Assembly: GCA_033648345.1 (NCBI GenBank)
Contig: GCA_033648345.1_4121.1
DNA: 64,000 bases
Source of the DNA: a phage
Strand: one strand, 5' to 3'
The notes beneath the pieces were generated by a model that had not been told where the DNA came from, made no database searches, and was given only the letters and a program-made list of their open reading frames with translations. Shown in pieces: positions 5,437 through 28,250 of this stretch. The position numbers and the translations under genes are program-made. Positions within the stretch are counted from its first letter, which is position 1, and the number at the start of each line of letters is the position of its first letter.

Positions 5437-7833
5437 ATGACAACTTTTACCCCTAGATGGGATATAAAAGCCGATGCTCGATATATACAAGAAGGACAAG
5501 ACATTCTTGTGCGTTTGAGTATCAACAAAGAAACCACAACGGATGATAGTTATATACTTAATGAAAACGAATACTTAGAGATGATTCTAACTATTCAGGG
5601 TTTGGACAGTTCTGATGCAGTATTTCAACCAGAAGATCACTACGCAGTGTATGTTGGGAATGATGAATCTAATCTCACACCTATATCATCAGGTATTACT
5701 GGTAACAAGTTGATTAATGGTAAGCACAAATGTAAAATTGATAAAACTCAATTTGATCTATCGGCAAGCACTAATACCGAAGATGTTTATTTTATTAAAT
5801 TGCATTGTAAAGATGATGGTACATTTAACAACTCTGAACAGATTAACTTCTATCTTCAAGCAGTAAATGTTATGTACTATGGTAACATTTCCCCTAGTGG
5901 TGAAATTGGTTCAAATGAAGTAACAATTGAATATGATAGCCAGGAAGTGTGGGTTACTCCTGGAATCGAAATCGGTGATGATGACAAATTATATTGTATT
6001 GGCGATATTGAATACGGTTCCAACAGTACTTTATTTGTACAGGGATTTGGTCGCCGTCGTCCATTTATTTTAGGAACTGATACATCAACTGACCTATCTC
6101 CTAGAGTATTTTATCCAGCGTATCGTCTACTCGATATGACCCCAGCAGAAGTTCCTGCTCGCCACATTACTGATGATTATGCAATCCTACGTCCTATTGA
6201 TAATATATGGCCTGTATTTGGTATTAATAAAGAAATTAAGGTTAATATTCAAACTAGCTCTGGGGAGTTACTAGATTCAGGATTGGTTTTCAACCCAAAT
6301 GGACAATTTCTGCAAACATTCCTATATGACTCTGATGCATGTGATGCATATTTCAAAGTTGAAATTGTTGATATTTTGAGTACATATAGTTATGACACTG
6401 ACCGCTTCGCTATAAACCAACGTTTCAAAGCATATCAAATGTGGGTATGTCCAGACAATGTAGATGGTATATACGCTGATGGTGATAAACCTTTACCTAA
6501 TCATTTGTATCAGTTGAAAGATAACGTTGTATATCCATATGTAATCTCTGGTGAATATGATCTAGGTGAAACAAAGCCAGTGTTTAAAAGTTCAGATTGG
6601 ATTGATTTAGGATATTATGATTCAAGCTTAGGTGCGAATATTATAGGTGAAGAGAAGATGTTCCGTGTTCTAGTGAACGCAGAAGAAGGAAACTCAATAG
6701 ACTTCACAACTGATAGTGATTTAGGTAGTATTCATGTGGGTGAATATTTCGGTCACAGTACTTATCCACAAATACAAACTACCAGTACTAATCAGGTATC
6801 TTATGTATTAGATGGTGGGCCTGATGATATTCGCAAATATGGTTTGGACCTCACCGCAGATGGGTTCTTGGTCGGGACGGCATATGCAAAAAGTTTAGAT
6901 TTCAGTGCAAATGATGATATAAAATTAGAATTCAACATCAAAGCATATGACACTGAAGGTGGTGTTGCGTCCAAGTTATTTAAACTGAAAATTGTACGTG
7001 GTTTTGGACAAAACTACTTAAGTGCACATATTGTACCTTCTGTTTATTTTGAACGTGAATGGTTTAAGTGTATTAGTACACCATCATTTACAAAACAAGC
7101 TTTCCATCGTCAATCAGATGATAGATACGGGTTACAAAAAGTACCACGTATTCTATTAAAAGAAAACTTTTTGAGTCAGAACTATACTTACACTACGTTG
7201 AGTGATATTAAAAAAGTACTTAGGGAAAATATCATAAACCAATCTGGTGCAACTATACCTGATGGAAAATTTAGAATGGTAATGGGCAACTATAAAGTAA
7301 TGTCAGCACTTGACAACCAAGGTAACTTGCAGTATGATATATTATACCGTGAAGTTTTACCCGCAGGTTCATTGGTGTCGGTTTCTAAGAATCCAAGAAG
7401 TTACACGCAAATTGATAACGGAACACTCGGTGAAATATTTGGCTTGCGTCAAAATATTTTTGCAGCAATTGGTGAAGACACAACTAACCTTGTGAAAGAC
7501 CCAACTGATTTACAAAACCGTGGTTTGTATGTAGATGCTATACCAGGAATTTCTGATGAGATGCTTGACACTGTTCCTCGCTTCATGAATCACCCATACG
7601 AAGAAAATGGAGTTGAAAAGAAATTTATGCCAATCATTCCAGTTGCATATTGTGCACCAGGAAAGGGCGAAGCATTCTTTAACACTTTACTTCAGAACAA
7701 TGAACATGGTAAGATGGTTGGTGTTGAGTTTGAAATCACAGGAGTTGAGTTTGGATTCTTTGCACATGAATTCGAAAACTACGTTCATGATACATTTTTG
7801 ATTTCATTACAAAACAGCAATTTAGGAGGATGA
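5437..7833 (+). CDS. large hypothetical protein (about 798 aa), probably late-expressed virion/structural protein
   Basis: Long ORF; start chosen at in-frame ATG after GGAGA RBS; late-promoter consensus upstream; no recognisable catalytic motif. Confidence 0.5.
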   Translation: MTTFTPRWDIKADARYIQEGQDILVRLSINKETTTDDSYILNENEYLEMILTIQGLDSSDAVFQPEDHYAVYVGNDESNLTPISSGITGNKLINGKHKCKIDKTQFDLSASTNTEDVYFIKLHCKDDGTFNNSEQINFYLQAVNVMYYGNISPSGEIGSNEVTIEYDSQEVWVTPGIEIGDDDKLYCIGDIEYGSNSTLFVQGFGRRRPFILGTDTSTDLSPRVFYPAYRLLDMTPAEVPARHITDDYAILRPIDNIWPVFGINKEIKVNIQTSSGELLDSGLVFNPNGQFLQTFLYDSDACDAYFKVEIVDILSTYSYDTDRFAINQRFKAYQMWVCPDNVDGIYADGDKPLPNHLYQLKDNVVYPYVISGEYDLGETKPVFKSSDWIDLGYYDSSLGANIIGEEKMFRVLVNAEEGNSIDFTTDSDLGSIHVGEYFGHSTYPQIQTTSTNQVSYVLDGGPDDIRKYGLDLTADGFLVGTAYAKSLDFSANDDIKLEFNIKAYDTEGGVASKLFKLKIVRGFGQNYLSAHIVPSVYFEREWFKCISTPSFTKQAFHRQSDDRYGLQKVPRILLKENFLSQNYTYTTLSDIKKVLRENIINQSGATIPDGKFRMVMGNYKVMSALDNQGNLQYDILYREVLPAGSLVSVSKNPRSYTQIDNGTLGEIFGLRQNIFAAIGEDTTNLVKDPTDLQNRGLYVDAIPGISDEMLDTVPRFMNHPYEENGVEKKFMPIIPVAYCAPGKGEAFFNTLLQNNEHGKMVGVEFEITGVEFGFFAHEFENYVHDTFLISLQNSNLGG

Positions 7834-14686: not shown

Positions 14687-14715
14687 TTGACAGTACTGAG
14701 TGTTGCCTGTAGAAT
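14687..14715 (+). promoter_or_regulatory. sigma70-like early promoter
   Basis: TTGACA, 17-nt spacer gtactgagtgttgcctg, TAGAAT. Confidence 0.6.
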
Positions 14716-14761
14716 GTTTATCACTGAGCAACACTATCTTAAATTAACTGAGGAATACACA

Positions 14762-15904
14762 ATGTCCGAGAAAGAAATCAATCCGAAAAAAGCAACAGTT
14801 AAACAAGCCAAAGCAACCAAAACTGCCAAACGTACTACCAAAACAGCAGCACACACAATTGACGCAACTGATATCTTCGAACAACAGTCCAAGTCACTTC
14901 CAGTACTGAAAGATACTAAAGGCAACAGTATGGCGTTAACTGTGCAGAATATTAATACCATCGGAACCACTGCTGGGGCAGGTGTAGGACGTTTGGCTGA
15001 TGAAATCATGTCAAAAGTTAACGTCACTGATGATAATACTGAATTCGGTAAGTCTATTACTACTATCTTGACATTGACTCGTGCAGTTGATATTGATAGT
15101 CTACAGGATGATAAATCAATCGTAGGCTGGGTCAAAAAACTTTTTGTTAATGCTAAACAGAAAGTTGGCGATCAGTACAAAAACAGTAAAGAACAAATTG
15201 ATGAAATCATGAACACTCTTCAGGTTGGTATTAACCGCCAGCATGGGGAATGTGCATGGCTAGACACTGCTTACAACGAAAACAAAAACTATCTCTTTGA
15301 ACTGCGTGATACGTTAGTTGAGTTGGAAGAAGTTACCAAAGCACAAGATGCTGAATTGGTAGCAATGCAAGCGAACCCTGACGTTGATTCTTTTGCAATC
15401 CAGGAGCAAAAGATGATTTGTGAAGCTCTTTCTAAACAGGAAGATAAGATTCGTCGTCTTATCATGATGTGTGAACTGAGCGGTCCTCGCCTGATGAGTA
15501 TGAAGAAAGTAAACCTCAACACTGTTTCTAAGTTTGAGGATTTGAAATCAGTTGTTATTCCAGCATGGAAATCACAATTGGCTGAACAGTTGATTTCCGA
15601 ACGTCAACGTAAAGACAATGAGTTGGGTAATCTGATTGACAATGAAACTAACCGTTTACTCGAAGTAAACTCTAAAATGGTAGCAACTAACATGTTGGAT
15701 GCTGCTAAGGCAAATAATCGTGGTATCGTGGATATTAAAACATTGCGTAATGTACACAAAACAATGATTGATAGCATCGAAGCAGTACTGATTGAAGAGA
15801 AGAAAGGTAAAGAAGAGCGTGAGCGAGCTAAGATTGAAATCGCAAAACTCTCTCATGAACTTGAAGATACTCTTCGTGAAATTGCTGAAAAAGCTAACAA
15901 GTAA
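14762..15904 (+). CDS. hypothetical protein, predicted alpha-helical/coiled-coil
   Basis: Start set at ATG after GAGGAA RBS (ORF-track start 14687 lies inside the promoter); 380 aa, K/E-rich repeats. Confidence 0.5.
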   Translation: MSEKEINPKKATVKQAKATKTAKRTTKTAAHTIDATDIFEQQSKSLPVLKDTKGNSMALTVQNINTIGTTAGAGVGRLADEIMSKVNVTDDNTEFGKSITTILTLTRAVDIDSLQDDKSIVGWVKKLFVNAKQKVGDQYKNSKEQIDEIMNTLQVGINRQHGECAWLDTAYNENKNYLFELRDTLVELEEVTKAQDAELVAMQANPDVDSFAIQEQKMICEALSKQEDKIRRLIMMCELSGPRLMSMKKVNLNTVSKFEDLKSVVIPAWKSQLAEQLISERQRKDNELGNLIDNETNRLLEVNSKMVATNMLDAAKANNRGIVDIKTLRNVHKTMIDSIEAVLIEEKKGKEERERAKIEIAKLSHELEDTLREIAEKANK

Positions 15905-15985: not shown

Positions 15986-16675
15986 ATGAAACGTCGTCAT
16001 GTTAGTGTTGATATTGAAGCTCTTGGAACTCCTGAAAACTCTGGTTATGATATTATTATTCCAAATTATGCAGCAGTAGTTGTTCCAAGTAAACCTGAAC
16101 ATGATATCAGACAATTTGTATATGTTAAGTTACCATACCAAGCACAAGTCAACGCTGGGCTGAAATCAGATGCAGGTGCAATGGATTTCTGGATGAATAC
16201 ATGTCAGAAGGAATATCCTAATGCATATGCTGAAGTTGCCAGTACTATGGCACTTGTTGCACCAGAATTGTACGGTCCTAATGGTAAATCCAAACAAATC
16301 TTTACTTCTAATGGTATTGTCGATTTCTGGAAAGATATCCGTTTTGATTGTTATGGTAACGAGGTTGAACATTCAATTTGGGGAAATGGCTGCAACTTCG
16401 ACTGTAGTATTTTACAAGCTAATCACTTAAAACTATTGAATGTTGGTGATTTGTGGAAATATGATGCTCCTGAAAACGCACGAACCCTGAAGCGTTTATT
16501 GAATGAAGAAGCTCGTACCGAAATGGATGAGATTGTGTCAGTGCAGTTAGCTAAATTCGTGAAGTATGTAGAAAAATGTGGTATTAATGGTTTGGAATTA
16601 CATCACCCTCTGTATGATGCAGCACGTGAAGCTATCCAAATCTCCTATTGTCTCAATAAACTTAAACTGGACTAA
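15986..16675 (+). CDS. dexA: DEDDh 3'-5' exonuclease (T4 DexA-like)
   Basis: Exo motifs VSVDIEALG, GNGCNFDCSIL, HHPLYDAAREA. Confidence 0.6.
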   Translation: MKRRHVSVDIEALGTPENSGYDIIIPNYAAVVVPSKPEHDIRQFVYVKLPYQAQVNAGLKSDAGAMDFWMNTCQKEYPNAYAEVASTMALVAPELYGPNGKSKQIFTSNGIVDFWKDIRFDCYGNEVEHSIWGNGCNFDCSILQANHLKLLNVGDLWKYDAPENARTLKRLLNEEARTEMDEIVSVQLAKFVKYVEKCGINGLELHHPLYDAAREAIQISYCLNKLKLD

Positions 16676-16678
16676 TAC

Positions 16679-17773
16679 ATGAATTTTATTATTCTGTTGA
16701 TTCCTTCACTTATCGTTGTATTTGTTATGAAATACATGTATGATAAGCATATCAGTACTAAAGAACTGTTGATTCATATTGGTTGTTGTATAGTTGGTGC
16801 TGCTCTTGTGCTTGGTATCTCATATGCAATCAACTACAGCCAATTGTACGATGTAGAGATTCTAAATGGGCAGGTAACATCCAAATATAATCACAAGGAG
16901 TTTTGTACACAATCAAGCTCATGTAAGCATTACACGTGGCACGAGAAATGCAGAACTCGTTATGATAGTAAGGGGAAATCCCATCGTGAATGTGAGTCCT
17001 ATAAGGTATTTGATTATTCATACGAAGTTGACTGGTATGTAAAAAGTACTGTAGGGAAGTTTGAGATTGAGCGAGTAAACCGCCAGGGTACAATGACCCC
17101 TCCACGCTGGCAACAGGTTAACATTGGGGATTATGCCGCCGCAGAAAGTTCTTATATTAACTATCTGTTCGCTGATAAAAACTCATTGTTTAGTCCTGGT
17201 GAATTACATGAAATGTATGATGAGAAATATCTTAGTACTTTGCCAGAATACCCAAGTGTGGTAGACTATTATAAAACACACCACGTAATCAACACTACTA
17301 ATTATAATGTAGATGGTTATGATGAGTATCTGCGTGAAGAACTAAAAACTATGGGTGCACGTAAACAAGTCAACATCCAAGTTTTGGTTTATGATTATAA
17401 AAACGTAGATTTTGTTGAGGCAACACTCGCTTCGTGGCGTGGTGGTAAGAAGAATGATGTTATTATGTTCTTTGGAATTGATAATGATGGGAAGATTGTT
17501 AAATTTGATAGCACTTCCTTTGCACAAGGCATGAAGAACGAAGAACTACATGCTAAGATGCGAATGGATGCATTAAATGAAAAATTAACTCTTGACTTGT
17601 TGAGAAAAGAAGTGCATAATATTGACACAAAGTTTGAAAGACTCTCTAATAAAGAGTTCGAGTACTTGTCTGTAAAAATGGAACCACGTAAAGATGTTCT
17701 CATCGGTGCTTCTATTTTATTACTGATTGTATCTATTTTCATTGGCCTTTATATGAGGGATAACAAGTTATGA
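16679..17773 (+). CDS. membrane protein with N- and C-terminal TM helices and Cys-rich central region; candidate LemA partner
   Basis: Hydrophobic N-terminus and C-terminus; ATGA-coupled to downstream LemA-like gene. Confidence 0.45.
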   Translation: MNFIILLIPSLIVVFVMKYMYDKHISTKELLIHIGCCIVGAALVLGISYAINYSQLYDVEILNGQVTSKYNHKEFCTQSSSCKHYTWHEKCRTRYDSKGKSHRECESYKVFDYSYEVDWYVKSTVGKFEIERVNRQGTMTPPRWQQVNIGDYAAAESSYINYLFADKNSLFSPGELHEMYDEKYLSTLPEYPSVVDYYKTHHVINTTNYNVDGYDEYLREELKTMGARKQVNIQVLVYDYKNVDFVEATLASWRGGKKNDVIMFFGIDNDGKIVKFDSTSFAQGMKNEELHAKMRMDALNEKLTLDLLRKEVHNIDTKFERLSNKEFEYLSVKMEPRKDVLIGASILLLIVSIFIGLYMRDNKL

Positions 17774-18324
17774 ATGGTAAAATTATTGCATTGATTGGTG
17801 TTGTTGTTGTATTCGGTCTTATGGCAATTGGTTCAGTTAGTATGTATGTAGATGCACATGACCGTGCTGTTGAATTTGAAGGTAATATTAAAAAGTACTA
17901 TGATGCATCAGAAAGTCAACTAAGTAAATACACTCTTGTCATTCAAGAAAAAGTACAAGTTTCTGATAAGTATAAGGATGCATTAAAAGAAACCATCGAA
18001 ACATACTTTAAAGGTCGTGAAGGTGTTGACCAGAAGTTTGTGATGTCACAGATTCAACAACAGGTTCCTAATCTCGATCCTAAGATTTATCAAGAACTTA
18101 TGGTAACTATCGAGTCAGGACGTACACAGTTCAACAATCTTCAGAAAATGAAAATTGACCAGTGTACTGATTATGCTAAGTTCCGTAAAGGTTTCTGGAA
18201 CTCCAAAATTCTTGATACTAACACATTCCCAAGTGAAAATATTGAACATTTATGTACAGTAGTTTCTGATACACGCACCAAGAAAGCAATGGATACTGGT
18301 ATCCAAGAAGTAATTAAACTATAA
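17770..18324 (+). CDS. LemA-family membrane protein
   Basis: N-terminal TM helix plus spacing of conserved blocks (..DRAVEFEGNIKKYYD.., ..LDPKIYQELMVTIESGRTQFNN..) resembling LemA. Confidence 0.5.
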   Translation: MNGKIIALIGVVVVFGLMAIGSVSMYVDAHDRAVEFEGNIKKYYDASESQLSKYTLVIQEKVQVSDKYKDALKETIETYFKGREGVDQKFVMSQIQQQVPNLDPKIYQELMVTIESGRTQFNNLQKMKIDQCTDYAKFRKGFWNSKILDTNTFPSENIEHLCTVVSDTRTKKAMDTGIQEVIKL

Positions 18325-18333
18325 TCTAAATCT

Positions 18334-18357
18334 GGGAGTACATTGTACTCCCATTTT
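18334..18357 (+). terminator. rho-independent terminator
   Basis: gggagtac-att-gtactccc hairpin then ATTTTC. Confidence 0.6.
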
Positions 18358-18371
18358 CTATAGGATTTATT

Positions 18372-18959
18372 ATGTTTTTAAAAAATACTTATGAATTAAT
18401 TAAAATGCTTCAAAATATGAATTTCGGTGGTCTATTCCCGTATCACTCTGAGGATAAAACTCATCGTTTAGTTTTGAAATTGGATGAAACTGGGCGTATT
18501 GCATCACTAAGAACGGCTGTTCCAAATATAGATCAAGTAATTATGCCAACAACTCCGAATTCAGGAACTGCTGTTAATACACCACAAACATATAACTCAA
18601 ACTACCAACACCCACAGATGTATACGATTAGTACTCCATCTATTACAAGAGTTGCTTGTATTGTTACTATAAAAGTATCAAAAGACTATCGTGATTTAAT
18701 ATCAGTTGAATGGTCGGAACTAACATCAGCATTTGCAAACAATGGGCTTGTTGTAACAAATTCTGGTATAGCAGTCAATGCAAAAGAAGGACAACAGATA
18801 ATGAGTGCGTTGTATCTTAGCAATGGTTATGTTATCATTAATGGGAAGTTATATTGTAACACCGAACCAGAAGCACTCACTGAAGATTTGATTAGTGAAA
18901 AAGAATATAGTCTTCTTGAAATTATGAATTTAAAAAAGGTATATGAAAACTGTGATTAG
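18372..18959 (+). CDS. hypothetical protein
   Basis: 195-aa ORF. Confidence 0.45.
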   Translation: MFLKNTYELIKMLQNMNFGGLFPYHSEDKTHRLVLKLDETGRIASLRTAVPNIDQVIMPTTPNSGTAVNTPQTYNSNYQHPQMYTISTPSITRVACIVTIKVSKDYRDLISVEWSELTSAFANNGLVVTNSGIAVNAKEGQQIMSALYLSNGYVIINGKLYCNTEPEALTEDLISEKEYSLLEIMNLKKVYENCD

Positions 18960-19527
18960 ATTTGATCAAGACGATTTACCATTTATCCAAGAACTAGAAG
19001 AACTAGTTACGGTAACGATGCAGGAAATTAGTTCATGGGATATAACAGTTTTTAGGAACGTATATGATAAAATCACAAACTTTAAAACTGTTAATATTGA
19101 GGTAAAACACAATAACTTTTACTTAACAAAAGAATTCATTCTAAAAAGACCAGGAACGATCCAACCGAAACGTAGTTTGTCTTTTGCTCAAGTTCTCGGT
19201 GCTAAGACAAGGGATGATGATGATTTGAATGAATCAATATATTCGTATATTAAAGAGCGTTCTCCTGATGTTAAGAAGAGATATTACCTTTGTGTTACAT
19301 TTGATGAACAAGGAAAACTAAATGCGTATTCTATAAATTCATCAGCACACGTCCCATTACATTCAACGTCAATTGGTGATAAACAATTACTAATCGATTC
19401 ATCAACATGGCATAATAGGGAAAATTTTGCCACTGAAACTTTTCAGTACTCGGTATCTGAACCAAAGTCTCCATTTGATTTTGTGTTTGTTAATAACATC
19501 CTTTTACGTTTTGGTGTAGGAGTCTAA
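18943..19527 (+). CDS. hypothetical protein
   Basis: 194-aa ORF. Confidence 0.45.
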   Translation: MKTVIRFDQDDLPFIQELEELVTVTMQEISSWDITVFRNVYDKITNFKTVNIEVKHNNFYLTKEFILKRPGTIQPKRSLSFAQVLGAKTRDDDDLNESIYSYIKERSPDVKKRYYLCVTFDEQGKLNAYSINSSAHVPLHSTSIGDKQLLIDSSTWHNRENFATETFQYSVSEPKSPFDFVFVNNILLRFGVGV

Positions 19528-19529
19528 AT

Positions 19530-19883
19530 ATGCTAATTTATTTGAGTGTTCTTGTTATTTCATTACTGGTATCATTAGCAGTACTGAAAGTTGTTGCCAT
19601 CGGTCGTAGTAAAATGGATAGTACTGAAACCAGTTCTGTGTTGGACCTAATTATGGATCATCCAAAGATCTGTACTGGGATTGTTGTGTTTGTTCTTCTT
19701 ATAGGAACATTCATTGTACGTACACATTTATACAATATGTATGACTGTAGTGTTCGTTCAATTTCTCAGGGTGTTGAAACAGACTATAGCTGGTACTATG
19801 AGAAATGTCGCTTCAAAAACCAGCATGGTATTTGGGTTGATTTTGATAAACTGCGTGGTACACCATCTGGTGAAGAAGAGTAA
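19530..19883 (+). CDS. hypothetical membrane protein
   Basis: 117 aa, two hydrophobic segments. Confidence 0.45.
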   Translation: MLIYLSVLVISLLVSLAVLKVVAIGRSKMDSTETSSVLDLIMDHPKICTGIVVFVLLIGTFIVRTHLYNMYDCSVRSISQGVETDYSWYYEKCRFKNQHGIWVDFDKLRGTPSGEEE

Positions 19884-19885
19884 TT

Positions 19886-20377
19886 ATGTTTGAATTTCCT
19901 GAAGAGTCATTTAACTATATTGACCCTACTGATGACGGATACAGACACATTAATATCTATAGTAAAGCTAAAACTAAGTTAGGTAGGGATCTATCTAACT
20001 TTTCGTCACATAGTTTTACCTTAGAACCATACGGTTGGTTCCCATCGGTAGAAACTTTTTATTTTTGGTTTTTAACAGGCCAGAAACATGATGATCTTAG
20101 AAAAGTGTCGGGTGCTGCTGCAAAAGCAGCGGCGAACAAGTATATGCACGACCGTATTGAAATGACACCCGAATGCATTTCTTGTATCCAGGATGCAATA
20201 TGTGCTAAGATATTTCAAAACCCAGAACTTGCTGAACGATTGAGGAAAAGTAAGTTACCCTTCTATCATTACTATGTTTATGGTGGGAAGGTGGTTGATG
20301 TATCTGATGAACATGACTGGTTTGTTAAAACATTCGAAGATATAAGAATTGTTTTGAAGGAGAACCACAATGAGTAA
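19886..20377 (+). CDS. putative NADAR/YbiA-like (DUF1768) protein
   Basis: HINIYSKAKTKLGRDLSNFS...GWFPSVETFYFWF resembles YbiA signature (FYS..FSNF..WPTSEHYFQA). Confidence 0.4.
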   Translation: MFEFPEESFNYIDPTDDGYRHINIYSKAKTKLGRDLSNFSSHSFTLEPYGWFPSVETFYFWFLTGQKHDDLRKVSGAAAKAAANKYMHDRIEMTPECISCIQDAICAKIFQNPELAERLRKSKLPFYHYYVYGGKVVDVSDEHDWFVKTFEDIRIVLKENHNE

Positions 20378-20648
20378 ATGTTGGGTATGTTGTAAGCAAT
20401 TCGATGAAGATTATATTATTTCTTTGGATGTATTACCACAACAATACATGATATCTTCAGGGAAATATAAACTAGATACAGTTCCAACACCTAAGTATAT
20501 GGGGATTTGTCCATTGTGTAATGGGAATGGTGTATCGAATGAAGTTGTTGCATTCACAAATACACAAACTACTGATTGTGTCGCCGAATATATAAGAAAG
20601 AATCTGGCTTTTTTCACTAGGAGATTATATGAACGAGAGAATCTTTAA
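20370..20648 (+). CDS. hypothetical zinc-ribbon protein
   Basis: CWVCC ... CPLCNGNG. Confidence 0.4.
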   Translation: MSKCWVCCKQFDEDYIISLDVLPQQYMISSGKYKLDTVPTPKYMGICPLCNGNGVSNEVVAFTNTQTTDCVAEYIRKNLAFFTRRLYERENL

Positions 20649-20865
20649 TTCATATGATATGGAAGATTTACTAATACCATCTGATAACAGTACTGTTAAA
20701 ATGCAAATGTATTGGTTAGTAAAAGATGGAAAGGTATTCCAGCACAAAGTTACAAAAGTATGGCAATGTAATAAAAACAAATCTATAGTTGATGCACTCG
20801 CAACTGCATATCCTGGGGTAGAGGTTGTATTTTTACCATTTGCCTACATTAAGGAAATAAAATGA
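20629..20865 (+). CDS. hypothetical protein
   Basis: 78-aa ORF. Confidence 0.35.
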   Translation: MNERIFNSYDMEDLLIPSDNSTVKMQMYWLVKDGKVFQHKVTKVWQCNKNKSIVDALATAYPGVEVVFLPFAYIKEIK

Positions 20866-21025
20866 AAAAAACATGGACAATATTCGTAATACCTACTATA
20901 ATGTTGTTATTGTCACTTACGGTCCCGCAAGGGCATGTTGTGGCACTGAATGTAGTAGAAATTATTCTTCTTGTAATTCACTGCATTGTATGTTACTATT
21001 ATGTAAAATCGGATGATAAAAAAAT

Positions 21026-21448
21026 ATGAAGTACTATCGAATTCGAGTTGGTGTAAGCTCTGGTTTTAGTAATTGGGTATATTATGATTTACCTGATAGC
21101 TATACAGTAGAAGATGTAATTGACTTATATTATGAAGAAGAGTCATGGGTATCCAGTACTGAAACGCACAGTGTTGTGTGTGAAGAACTGAGTGCAGAAG
21201 ATTACAAGCACTGTACCCAAGCAATGAAGTATTACAGTAAAGATGTGAAGATGTTATCTGAAAACGTTTTTCCTGTAAAAGAATGGGCAATTTTGCTTGC
21301 AAATCCTAACAAACCTGTTAGAATAGGTTATCCAAACAATCATATGGTTTATCGAATGAATGATAAACGTGAGCTAAGTTATCAGTATGATTACAGTGCT
21401 TCTAAGTTTGGAGTTCTAAAACAATTTATGAAGGCTTATCCAGTATGA
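21026..21448 (+). CDS. hypothetical protein
   Basis: 140-aa ORF. Confidence 0.45.
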   Translation: MKYYRIRVGVSSGFSNWVYYDLPDSYTVEDVIDLYYEEESWVSSTETHSVVCEELSAEDYKHCTQAMKYYSKDVKMLSENVFPVKEWAILLANPNKPVRIGYPNNHMVYRMNDKRELSYQYDYSASKFGVLKQFMKAYPV

Positions 21449-21780
21449 GCAAAGACAGCAAAGAATTTATAGTACGTTGTAGTTGTGGCGATAATACGGA
21501 ACATTGTGTTCACATTTCACAATTTGACTTGACACAAGAACATGGAGATGATAAACTTGGTCAATGTCTAGTGAGTATGCGTTTGAATCCTTTCTTAAAA
21601 TGGTACAAACGCGTATGGGTTGCATTGAAGTATATTTTCGGCGTAAACGACTTTCAATACAAAGAAGCAATGATTGATGTTGACATTCTGAAAGAAGTTG
21701 TGTTACAATTAGAAGATACCCGCTCCGATGAGGTAAAGAAAGAAGAAAGAGATAAACGTACTGATGTGAAGGTTTTATGA
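21445..21780 (+). CDS. hypothetical protein
   Basis: 111-aa ORF. Confidence 0.4.
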   Translation: MSKDSKEFIVRCSCGDNTEHCVHISQFDLTQEHGDDKLGQCLVSMRLNPFLKWYKRVWVALKYIFGVNDFQYKEAMIDVDILKEVVLQLEDTRSDEVKKEERDKRTDVKVL

Positions 21781-21971
21781 GTACTGAACTTTATGAAAAA
21801 AAGTACTGTACAAATTGTTCAACCGAGTATACAATACAGGGTATGTTGATTTGTACAATATGCCAATCAAAACAGGCTGCCACTTTTATCGTTGATGATA
21901 GATTTGGTGATTTAAAACAGTTTAAAGCAAACCGTAATCTTCGTAACTTTAGCAATCTATATAAGGAATAA
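21777..21971 (+). CDS. hypothetical zinc-ribbon protein
   Basis: CTNCS...CTICQ. Confidence 0.4.
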   Translation: MSTELYEKKYCTNCSTEYTIQGMLICTICQSKQAATFIVDDRFGDLKQFKANRNLRNFSNLYKE

Positions 21972-21974
21972 CAC

Positions 21975-22403
21975 ATGAATATCGAACAAACTATCCGTAA
22001 CCACTCTTTCTTCGCTGCTGAAACTGGTCGTGTAATCGAGAGCGTCAAAATTGAAGAACTGATGATTAACGTTAAATATAAAGAACTGAATGATGAGATT
22101 AGCAGCACCATTTGTGCACTACGTGCTCCATTCCGTTCTGAAGCAGCTAAGAAACCTGCCTATGTACTGGCGATTGCATTGGGTTGTGTAGTGAAATTGG
22201 TCGTTGATGAAAATCAACTAAATATCAAAGTTGCTCCAACCAACGATGAAGAAAACATCGACCTGAACTTTGAAGGTAATCTGGCTGAAGACGTATTCTT
22301 CCAACAATCACTGGTTTATGATTTCCGTACTGTAACTCATGACCACATCAACTTTGTCAATGAGATGGTTGACATTGTAGCTGAATACGAAGCTTCCCTA
22401 TAA
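21975..22403 (+). CDS. FQxS-module family protein (paralog family, see findings)
   Basis: C-terminal AEDVFFQQSLV. Confidence 0.5.
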   Translation: MNIEQTIRNHSFFAAETGRVIESVKIEELMINVKYKELNDEISSTICALRAPFRSEAAKKPAYVLAIALGCVVKLVVDENQLNIKVAPTNDEENIDLNFEGNLAEDVFFQQSLVYDFRTVTHDHINFVNEMVDIVAEYEASL

Positions 22404-22416
22404 TTAGATTAACAAA

Positions 22417-22438
22417 AGCCTCCGTAATGGGGGCTTTT
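22417..22438 (+). terminator. rho-independent terminator
   Basis: agcctcc-gtaat-gggggct hairpin then TTTT. Confidence 0.55.
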
Positions 22439-22458
22439 CCAACATAAGGATATGAATA

Positions 22459-23010
22459 ATGATTGACCAAATTAAAATCCTAACTGAACAAATCACTGAT
22501 TTTCTAGCAGATAAAGATGGATTCAGTACTGAAGTTAAAATGCATGGTGTTAGTCTCGATGTAACTGCACCAAATGGCGAAACAACCAATTATGATATGT
22601 ATGAAATCCTACTTTATACATTGGCTGTTCGTAAACTTGGTAGTGATATTGAACTAAACATTAACAAAACCGAGAACGGTGACCAAGTGTTTGCAATTAA
22701 CACTGGTGCACAAATGGACGTAGTAGCTGAAATCAACAAGATCAACCAATCTTTTGTGGGTTTCAAGCATGATACAATCCAATCTGTGTTCCTGGGTAAA
22801 CAAACCGGAAACAGCCACTGTCCTTATTGTGTAATGACAACCTATAAGAATGGTAACTGGATGCGTCAGGATCTAGTGCTTGCTGAAATGCTTTATGCAA
22901 TCACACACGGCCTAGAACTTGAACTTGATGATAGCGTGTACTGTTTCAAGAAAATCCGTAAACTTTCTGGTGATATACAAGCTCAATTAAAAGAATTAAA
23001 TGATAAATAA
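22459..23010 (+). CDS. hypothetical protein
   Basis: 183-aa ORF. Confidence 0.5.
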   Translation: MIDQIKILTEQITDFLADKDGFSTEVKMHGVSLDVTAPNGETTNYDMYEILLYTLAVRKLGSDIELNINKTENGDQVFAINTGAQMDVVAEINKINQSFVGFKHDTIQSVFLGKQTGNSHCPYCVMTTYKNGNWMRQDLVLAEMLYAITHGLELELDDSVYCFKKIRKLSGDIQAQLKELNDK

Positions 23011-23122
23011 TTATACCAGTAATGGTTAACATTATCATGTTACTTTCCTCCCTTACATAATAATGATGCGTTATTATTTTATTGTATTATTCCCCTTTTT
23101 CGTACAAAATCTTTTTCGTACT

Positions 23123-23146
23123 GCCCCGACCTTCGGGGCATTTTTC
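23123..23146 (+). terminator. rho-independent terminator
   Basis: gccccg-acctt-cggggc hairpin then ATTTTTC. Confidence 0.6.
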
Positions 23147-26369: not shown

Positions 26370-28250
26370 ATGAAACCTATCCGAGTACTATCTCTTTTTA
26401 ATGGAATGAGTGTAGGATACATGGCATTAAAAGATGCTGGTATCCCTGTTGAAAAATATTATTCATCCGAAATTGACAAATTTGCTATAGCTGAATCCCA
26501 AGCTAACTTCCCCGATATAATCCAATTGGGTGATGTAACTAGATGGAGAGAATGGGATATTGAATGGGATAAGATAGATCTACTGATGGGTGGTTTTCCA
26601 TGCTTCCCAGCAGGAACTATGATAATGACAAATAAAGGTCATAAAGATATAAAAGATATAAAAATTGGTGATATGGTTCTTACACACACTGGACAGTACC
26701 AAAAAGTATTGAGTACTGGTGTTAAAAAGGCTCCCACTCGTATTATTACAGGTCAAGGTCACCTTCCAATTGAGTGTACCGATAATCATCCATTTTGGAG
26801 TAGGGAACGTCTAGCCAATAAATGGAATAATCAACGCCGAAGATATGATTCTGTGTTTTCTGAACCGCAATGGGTAAATGCTATAGATCTTACTAAACAA
26901 AGTTATATTTGTAATGTTAAAAATATTACACATAATACAGTAAGTGATAAAGATGAAAAATATTGGTATTTTGTTGGTCGTTTTATGGGTGATGGATGTG
27001 CTAGTGTATCTAATAACAAATACAGTATTACTATTGTAGATTCATTAGATAAAGTTGATGAATTGAAAAAATGTTTTGATGATTTTGGATACAAATACAC
27101 ATTAGCTATTAAAGATAATCATGTAAGATGTGATATATATAGCAAAAAGCTTTATGATGAATTAATATGTATTGGGCATAAATCACAAAACAAATGTTTA
27201 CCACCTGAAATATTCAATGAAACTATCAATAACAAAGAAGCATTTATTAAAGGATACATGGATGCAGATGGTTGTGAGGATAAACACAATAAAAAATACA
27301 AATTTACCACCACAAGTTATAAAATAGTTCTTGGTATGCAACAGTTAATCTTAGATACTTATCAACGTCATTGTACTATTAGTCAAACTGTTCCAAAAAC
27401 AAAAAAATATATAAAAAATAAGTTGGTTAATCAGCTTCCGTATTGGAATGTTCATTTTAGCTATAATAAAATTAAAAGAGATGATGTAATATATGATGAA
27501 ATTTATATATGGAATCGTGGTGTAAAAAGTAATGTACCAACCGGAGAATGGAAAACCGTTTACAATATTGAAGTTGCAGTAGATAACACATATACGGCGA
27601 ACAATATTGTAGTTCATAACTGCCAAGCGTGGTCAGTTGCAGGTAAACAGGGTGGAATAAATGATCCTCGTGGTATGTTATTCCATACAATGGTTGATAT
27701 TTACCAGCACATAAAAAGTCTCAATCCAGACTTGAAAGTACTGTTCGAGAATGTTAAAATGAAAGAAGATTTCAAGCAATACATTAATAGTGTTCTTGAG
27801 ATGACACCAGTACTGATAAATTCCCAGCATTATACGCCTCACTTCAGGCAGAGATATTACTGGTACAGTACTGATAAACTTTTTATACCACCTGCATTAT
27901 CAAATGCACCTAAACTTCAAGATATTATTGAAGATGGTTGGTACACTGACAGAACCGCTTCGTACTGTATAGATGCTAACTATTTTAAGGGTGGTGATTG
28001 TAACCAGTACTTTAATAAATCAAGAAGACAAATTGTTTTCAAAGAACCTGATATCGATAGGGATTTCCTTATTGAACATGGTAAGCGAAATGTGGACTAT
28101 CGTCATTTAACAGTACAAGAGTGTTGCATGTTGCAAGGAATTGATGTAAACTACTTCAAAGTTAGTAGTTCAACACAAGCATACAAAATGCTTGGGAATG
28201 GATGGACTATGCCAGTTATATCACACTTATTAAGAGAGATATTCTTTTGA
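26370..28250 (+). CDS. DNA (cytosine-5)-methyltransferase (Dcm-type) interrupted by an in-frame intein
   Basis: Motif I LSLFNGMSVG; extein junction reconstitutes motif IV GGFP-C-QAWSVAGK; motif VI LFENV; motif X MLGNGWTMPV. Confidence 0.85.
   Translation: MKPIRVLSLFNGMSVGYMALKDAGIPVEKYYSSEIDKFAIAESQANFPDIIQLGDVTRWREWDIEWDKIDLLMGGFPCFPAGTMIMTNKGHKDIKDIKIGDMVLTHTGQYQKVLSTGVKKAPTRIITGQGHLPIECTDNHPFWSRERLANKWNNQRRRYDSVFSEPQWVNAIDLTKQSYICNVKNITHNTVSDKDEKYWYFVGRFMGDGCASVSNNKYSITIVDSLDKVDELKKCFDDFGYKYTLAIKDNHVRCDIYSKKLYDELICIGHKSQNKCLPPEIFNETINNKEAFIKGYMDADGCEDKHNKKYKFTTTSYKIVLGMQQLILDTYQRHCTISQTVPKTKKYIKNKLVNQLPYWNVHFSYNKIKRDDVIYDEIYIWNRGVKSNVPTGEWKTVYNIEVAVDNTYTANNIVVHNCQAWSVAGKQGGINDPRGMLFHTMVDIYQHIKSLNPDLKVLFENVKMKEDFKQYINSVLEMTPVLINSQHYTPHFRQRYYWYSTDKLFIPPALSNAPKLQDIIEDGWYTDRTASYCIDANYFKGGDCNQYFNKSRRQIVFKEPDIDRDFLIEHGKRNVDYRHLTVQECCMLQGIDVNYFKVSSSTQAYKMLGNGWTMPVISHLLREIFF
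26601..27620 (+). mobile_element. intein (340 aa) with LAGLIDADG homing-endonuclease domain, inserted at the catalytic Cys of the methyltransferase
   Basis: Begins CFPAGT (block A), TDNH (block B), two LAGLIDADG-like blocks (YFVGRFMGDGCA; FIKGYMDADGCE), ends VVHN followed by +1 Cys. Confidence 0.8.

Follow-up and report, generated by a model that had tools for sequence, protein, structure and literature searches.

The open reading frame (ORF) at positions 19886..20377 (+) of a 64,000-nucleotide stretch of phage DNA, referred to here as the window, raises two questions: whether it encodes a NADAR/YbiA-like protein, as a first-pass annotation had proposed from its resemblance to the YbiA/DUF1768 signature, and on what substrate such a protein would act during infection. 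NADAR enzymes reverse the ADP-ribosylation of bases, and phage copies (AdfN) defeat DarTG1 defence, so a genuine assignment gives a functional hypothesis to a gene that GenBank mostly labels "hypothetical protein". The frame is complete, running from ATG to TAA over 163 codons, and its translation includes the two blocks quoted in the first-pass annotation, HINIYSKAKTKLGRDLSNFS (residues 21–40) and GWFPSVETFYFWF (residues 50–62).

The ORF is a real, conserved gene. Homologues were found by tblastn in 503 phage records, among them jumbo phages of Escherichia, Klebsiella, Erwinia, Serratia, Ralstonia and Xanthomonas, together with Ackermannviridae and with Vibrio and Pseudomonas myoviruses. When 1.84 billion cluster representatives (clusters at 50% identity) were searched exhaustively with a profile, 2,101 matched at E ≤ 1e-3, and 672 of these reached E ≤ 1e-30. 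This conservation rules out a chance ORF or a non-coding stretch. Among the PHROGs, the protein matches phrog_652 at 1e-45 and also phrog_11222, two families without an assigned function. Across 18000–23000, a span of 5 kb that includes the ORF, the window is 99% identical to Asteriusvirus jumbo coliphages such as Ecwhy_1, BF17 and Turkey3 (~350–385 kb), and the protein itself is identical (100%) to QAY00367.1 of Ecwhy_1.

Direct searches with the protein returned little. By hmmscan, nothing in Pfam (including PF08719 and PF08010), NCBIfam or PADLOC was matched at E ≤ 10, and the gathering score of PF08719 was not reached. When 27 relatives were scanned, PF08719 gave weak matches in four of them (best 0.024) and PF08010 gave sub-threshold matches in eight (best 4.9e-4, 20.4 bits against a cut-off of 36), and none of the homologues checked carries a precomputed PF08719 domain. 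Comparison with PDB sequences by phmmer produced a chance match only (E 0.8), and no similarity to T4 AdfN was detected by BLASTP. These blanks carry little weight, because T4 gp30.3 (AdfN), an experimentally proven NADAR, likewise misses the NADAR structures when searched by phmmer. Family profiles were needed for the comparison with T4, since BLASTP was empty and the window-family profile reached only 84% against the single T4 AdfN sequence.

At the level of profiles and predicted structure the relationship is clear. Against the PDB, the two best matches of the 27-member family profile are both NADARs, namely 8BAU (1.8e-4) and 2B3W, which is YbiA (6e-4). AlphaFold2 gave a confident model (pLDDT 90.7, pTM 0.83) that agrees with a NADAR fold, structure prediction being among the checks proposed in the first-pass annotation; in Foldseek, three matches at a probability of at least 0.99 were counted for this fold and all others lie at or below 0.05. 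By hhalign, the family aligns with the YbiA family at 96.9% (E 1.7e-10, residues 18–163) and with the T4 AdfN/gp30.3 family at 97.2% (E 3.5e-11, 139 columns). A control alignment of the AdfN family with the YbiA family scored 97.9%, and the clade of the window protein is therefore about as distant from the YbiA and AdfN branches as these are from each other.

The specificity of these matches was assessed on 1,465 six-frame ORFs, taken from the whole window, the whole genome of phage rV5 and a T4 segment. The YbiA-family HMM selected only T4 AdfN (8.5e-5) and the window ORF (7.8e-4), with the next best at 0.34, and the window-family HMM selected only the window ORF itself and T4 AdfN; with these family HMMs, no second NADAR was found within the 64-kb window. 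The HMM search proposed in the first-pass annotation has a divided outcome: PF08719 itself is silent, whereas the family profile, the YbiA HMM and hhalign all lead to NADARs. Existing records agree, the orthologous coding sequence of Turkey3 being annotated as "NADAR domain-containing protein" and a homologue in Serratia phage Moabite as "N-glycosidase", with an HHpred match to 2B3W cited. It is almost certain that the ORF encodes a stand-alone protein with a NADAR fold that belongs to the NADAR superfamily. On its sequence, this protein is assigned to a third, very large and phage-specific His-type branch.

The domain identity is correct and already known. The identification is not new, because Iyer et al. 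2021, in a study of comparative genomics, named the identical protein QAY00367.1 as an example of a jumbo-phage NADAR. A later survey counts NADAR domains in over 48% of phages of medium and jumbo size and describes fusions to DUF4326, SLOG and Macro domains (Iyer et al. 2022).

What the protein may do was approached through its residues, whose conservation was counted in an alignment of 176 family members. The residues that vary least in the family fall within the two quoted blocks, each being conserved in at least 90% of the members (H21, N23, Y25, S26, G33, L36, N38, F39, G50, F52, S54, E56 and W61), and N23, G33, E56 and G76 are found in 176/176. The likeness of these blocks to the YbiA signature exceeds chance, as the YbiA HMM selects this ORF, and the initial motif-based reading is supported. 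The N-terminal motif D17-G18-x-x-H21-I-N23-I-Y25-S26 (19934..19963, +) forms the first strand, with D17 in 171 of the 176 members, G18 in 175, H21 in 171, N23 in all, Y25 in 168 and S26 in 170. Its INxYS part aligns with I17-N18-F19-Y20-S21 of YbiA, and D17 and H21 are specific to the clade of the window protein. It is followed by L36-S37-N38-F39 (19991..20002, +; L36 169/176, N38 172/176, F39 166/176), the superfamily-wide LSNF motif, which lines up with SNF in YbiA, PnNADAR and T4 AdfN.

The equivalent of the catalytic glutamate is E56 (20051..20053, +), which pairs with that Glu in each of the three alignments; its counterparts are E43 in PnNADAR, E48 in YbiA, E88 in the E. coli C7 NADAR and E36 in T4 AdfN, and the catalytic role of this Glu in NADARs has been described (PMC11543638; PMC11825919). 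Seven residues past the Glu, canonical NADARs carry a phosphate-coordinating Lys (K50/K55/K95/K43), which is essential in the E. coli C7 NADAR (K95; PMC11543638) and contributes in T4 AdfN, where K43A gives only partial rescue. By hhalign, the residue of the window protein paired with K55 of YbiA and K43 of T4 is L63 (20072..20074, +). Lys is absent from this position throughout the clade, in which Ser (42 of 176), Leu (41) and Gly (35) are found instead, and there is no conserved basic residue nearby.

K80 (20123..20125, +; 175/176) is part of the helix motif G76-x-x-A79-K80, with G76 in 176/176; the GxxAK motif is shared with the gp30.3-family consensus "GxxAKxxG" and with "AVAKKLGR" of PnNADAR, and K80 is a candidate phosphate contact. 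At the site of the "GR" helix residue R79, the window protein has A83-N84-K85, where 165/176 members carry G83 and 126/176 carry Arg or Lys at 84; K85 or K80 might stand in for the pyrophosphate-binding R79. The window protein and its nearest Asteriusvirus relatives also depart from the consensus at Y59 (Trp in 162/176) and F60 (Tyr in 160/176), as well as at A83 and N84, and the departures at 59, 60, 83 and 84 may mark a change of the ligand-binding helix that is specific to this lineage. Another conserved Lys, K108, is found in 167/176.

In the last strands, one residue tells the described NADAR groups apart: the YbiA family has Glu there, the NADARs linked to DarT1 have Asp, and phage proteins of the gp30.3 type have His (PMC11543638, PMC11125620). 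The motif H128-Y129-Y130 (20267..20275, +), at the start of the penultimate strand, is conserved in 174, 172 and 171 of the 176 members, respectively, and hhalign pairs H128 with H123 of T4, which is invariant in the gp30.3 family; for this reason the window protein is classified as a His-type phage NADAR. The YbiA and T4 hhalign alignments differ by a few residues near the last strand, and against YbiA there is a gap at H128, so that the equivalence with E125 rests on the T4 alignment and on the published rule. Further ADP-ribose contacts of PnNADAR have been described at R79, W89, R93, D130 and W133 (PMC11543638), and the "D..WG" motif formed by D130 and W133 has no counterpart in the window protein. 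According to the AlphaFold2 model, the C-terminus carries an extra β-hairpin (strands 129–132 and 135–138) before the last helix, and about 16 residues precede the core, of which residues 1–6 are disordered, with no long N-terminal helix.

The loss of both the canonical Lys and the R79 equivalent would fit a protein that binds ADP-ribose without catalysis, acting as a sponge or as an inhibitor, so that an NAD+-consuming defence is neutralised through its product or its effector, and another phage NADAR acting on Retron-Eco1 is reported to need no enzymatic activity (Johannesman et al.). Such a binder is nevertheless quite improbable, given the enzyme-like pattern of conservation: the Glu is found in 176/176 members and the His in 174/176, and D17, H21, N23, Y25, S26, K80 and K108 are near-invariant in a family of some 2,100 clusters. 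These near-invariant polar residues indicate an enzyme, and the missing Lys together with the clade-specific D17 and H21 indicates an altered handling of the ligand.

The surroundings of the gene were then considered for possible partners. Upstream, a small ORF of 117 amino acids with an N-terminal hydrophobic segment (19530..19883, +) has its stop 2 nt ahead of the NADAR ATG and gives a weak, sub-threshold Pfam match to DUF6097 (E 0.0026, 18.4 bits against a cut-off of 27.5 bits). Downstream, the ATG of a Cys-rich ORF of 92 amino acids with no Pfam match (20370..20648, +) overlaps the NADAR stop by 8 nt (ATGAGTAA). This spacing makes it probable that the three genes are translationally coupled. 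Two terminator-like hairpins, one with a 9 bp stem and a T-run (18333..18353, +) and another with an 8 bp stem containing 6 GC and a T-run (23122..23140, +), are candidate upstream and downstream boundaries of the NADAR transcription unit; their placement is suggestive, the total of terminator-like sites being equal to the shuffle expectation. The promoter scan was uninformative, with 94 sites against 79 expected.

The NADAR gene sits among small co-directional ORFs with no recognisable domains, in a window where 112 of the 118 ORFs of at least 60 amino acids (greedy non-overlapping selection) lie on the + strand. Just upstream of the NADAR block are genes for a TelA-like protein (14687–15904, +; PF05816, 1.8e-37) and an Rv2179c-like 3'-5' exoribonuclease (15986–16675, +; PF16473, 5e-9), and a gene labelled "LemA" in related records (17770–18324, +). 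In one distant protein of the NADAR clade, the domain is joined to an Rv2179c-like exonuclease (2.6e-47), and this fusion and the upstream neighbour are hints of a functional link. Downstream lies a C5-cytosine DNA methyltransferase of 626 amino acids (26370–28250, +; PF00145, 5.9e-29) interrupted by an intein (Hint_2, Intein_splicing, LAGLIDADG_3) that holds a LAGLIDADG homing-endonuclease domain. The pooled Pfam scan of the 118 window ORFs also detected the A and B subunits of topoisomerase II, a clamp-loader ATPase, a sigma70-like factor (regions 2 and 3), a PD-(D/E)XK nuclease, NUMOD4/HNH homing endonucleases and a DNA polymerase III alpha fragment.

No ART/DarT, Macro, SLOG, Nudix, SIR2 or DUF4326 domain was found by Pfam among the 118 window ORFs, and the immediate neighbours of the NADAR gene contain no ART domain. 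With no ART/DarT or other partner in the window, the gene is an orphan and not half of a toxin–antitoxin pair; a toxin–antitoxin module is ruled out by the absence of a partner gene. The same scan bears on the idea that the protein is a housekeeping N-glycosidase resembling YbiA, which would act on intermediates of the riboflavin pathway or on other nucleotides for the metabolism of the phage. No riboflavin-pathway genes are found among the Pfam matches of the window, the residues that define the YbiA family (Glu125, K55, R79, D130 and W133, all invariant in the YbiA-family alignment) are not matched in the window protein, and only one phage NADAR falls near the YbiA-like group (Johannesman et al.). 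A housekeeping role of this kind is therefore very unlikely indeed.

The protein is most likely an enzyme that removes ADP-ribose from nucleic acids or from signalling molecules in opposition to host immunity. Our main reading, to which we assign a probability of roughly 0.5, is that it is an orphan, antitoxin-like ADP-ribosyl N-glycohydrolase, which serves counter-defence by macromolecular de-ADP-ribosylation. The phage would make the orphan NADAR protein during infection, and the protein would remove ADP-ribose from nucleobases, the likeliest target being guanine-N2-ADP-ribose put on phage DNA (or RNA) by host DarT1-type toxins; cleavage of the adduct would restore replication and transcription. 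The removal of DarT1-type guanine-N2-ADP-ribose from phage DNA has been shown for the AdfN proteins of T4, Bas32 and Bas60. Every NADAR tested hydrolyses guanine-ADP-ribose, on DNA (PMC11125620) and on RNA, with which an orphan de-ADP-ribosylase is consistent, and some NADARs also cleave cytidine-ADP-ribose. For the window protein, we infer that it is catalytically active, what it acts on and that it counters host defence. Counted against the main reading are the clade-wide loss of the Lys, N84, the missing D..WG motif, the lack of a basic N-terminal extension and the silence of the Pfam NADAR and Phage_30_3 models. In the literature, no assay of any Lys-less clade member was found.

The organization of longer clade members may point to another substrate. 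Among 88 such proteins, DUF4326, a predicted ribose-phosphate phosphatase, is fused in 26, YAcAr/SLOG in about 20, Macro in six and DUF488-N3a in six, while a canonical PF08719 NADAR and an Rv2179c-like exonuclease are present in one each. This network of fusions was assigned by Iyer et al. 2021/2022, citing QAY00367.1, to the processing of soluble ADP-ribose derivatives. Accordingly, the protein could be an active NADAR on low-molecular-weight ADP-ribose derivatives, blunting Thoeris or immunity of the TIR/SIR2 type based on NAD+ and ADP-ribose; candidate substrates, whether signals of immunity or toxic metabolites, include cyclic ADPR isomers, base- or histidine-linked ADPR and intermediates of the ADPr-1''-phosphate pathway. 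An altered substrate would suit the missing Lys, the missing DNA-binding extension and the clade-specific D17 and H21. However, no NADAR is known to degrade an immune signalling nucleotide, the tested NADARs all act on base-linked ADP-ribose of nucleic acids or, in the case of YbiA, on riboflavin intermediates, and the window protein stands alone, with no SLOG, Macro or Nudix partners in the 64-kb window. We consider a soluble substrate possible, if doubtful, and retain nucleic-acid de-ADP-ribosylation as the main reading.

The clade is systematically under-annotated, because both Pfam NADAR models miss it. Nearly all of the matches listed (60 of ~500 records) carry the GenBank label "hypothetical protein". 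In RefSeq T4 (NC_000866), gene 30.3 itself (6308–6766, −), which encodes AdfN, is still labelled in this way, and the record also annotates 30.3', an internal ORF that overlaps it in a different frame. Klebsiella phage phi1_146021 (Ackermannviridae) encodes a clade homologue (1468–1953), directly upstream of a MazG-like pyrophosphatase and the large subunit of topoisomerase II, that was automatically annotated as "virion structural protein". Phage NADARs are often packaged (Iyer et al. 2022), but packaging into the virion was rejected as a conclusion from such labels: in close relatives they sit on neighbouring ORFs, and the single automated label in Ackermannviridae is too weak as support. 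In the whole genome of phage rV5 (NC_011041), the type Vequintavirus, no NADAR was found with the YbiA-family, gp30.3 and window-clade HMMs, and the related Vequintavirinae (Bas60–62) are reported to encode AdfN(Bas60). rV5 encodes a Sir2-like protein beside a nucleotide pyrophosphohydrolase and an RNA ligase.

Because the canonical phosphate-binding Lys is missing, the clade may act on another substrate than T4 AdfN does. The remaining interest of the locus thus lies in an under-annotated clade whose substrate might conceivably be unlike that of AdfN. Only tentatively do we suggest that the Lys-less His-type clade (~2,100 clusters, with D17 and H21 of its own) is a distinct NADAR branch for a different N-glycosidic ADP-ribose conjugate and not a DNA-guanine de-ADP-ribosylase; this conjugate could be, for instance, a nucleotide used in immune signalling, or an adduct on RNA or on cytidine. 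If true, the clade would represent a new class of anti-defence enzyme, widespread in jumbo phages and Ackermannviridae. Since the clade is large, the activity of one member would annotate thousands of phage genes.

Among the known systems close to the window protein is T4 gp30.3, or AdfN(T4) (PF08010, Phage_30_3), the phage NADAR that counters DarTG1. Both are stand-alone proteins of ~150–160 amino acids with a NADAR fold, encoded in large myoviruses by orphan genes with no adjacent toxin, and they share the LSNF motif, the Glu (E36 and E56), the His (H123 and H128) and, in the family consensus, the GxxAKxxG helix motif. In contrast to AdfN, K43 is replaced by L63, so that the functional pair E36/K43 is incomplete in the window protein, which is also missed by the PF08010 HMM and has the extra C-terminal β-hairpin. 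E. coli YbiA (2B3W), an N-glycosidase of riboflavin intermediates and the founder of PF08719, is encoded by a chromosomal, housekeeping gene of a LexA operon (PMC11125620). It differs in having Glu125, K55, R79 and D130-x-x-W133-G, where the window protein has H128, L63, N84 and no counterpart of D130 and W133. The DarG1/DarT1-linked NADARs (E. coli C7; G. lovleyi, 8BAT) combine a last-strand Asp with K95, a basic N-terminal ββα extension and a DarT1 neighbour (PMC11543638), whereas the window protein has a His, lacks the Lys and the basic N-terminal extension proposed for ssDNA, and has no adjacent DarT1. In the complex of the Phytophthora nicotianae NADAR with ADP-ribose (8BAU), the contacts K50, R79, W89, R93, D130 and W133 are mostly unconserved in the window protein. 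Finally, the jumbo-phage and giant-virus NADAR survey of Iyer et al. 2021/2022 deals with the same object as this work, and its DUF4326, SLOG and Macro fusions are reproduced here; its functional proposal concerns soluble ADP-ribose derivatives, whereas the later AdfN experiments concern DNA adducts.
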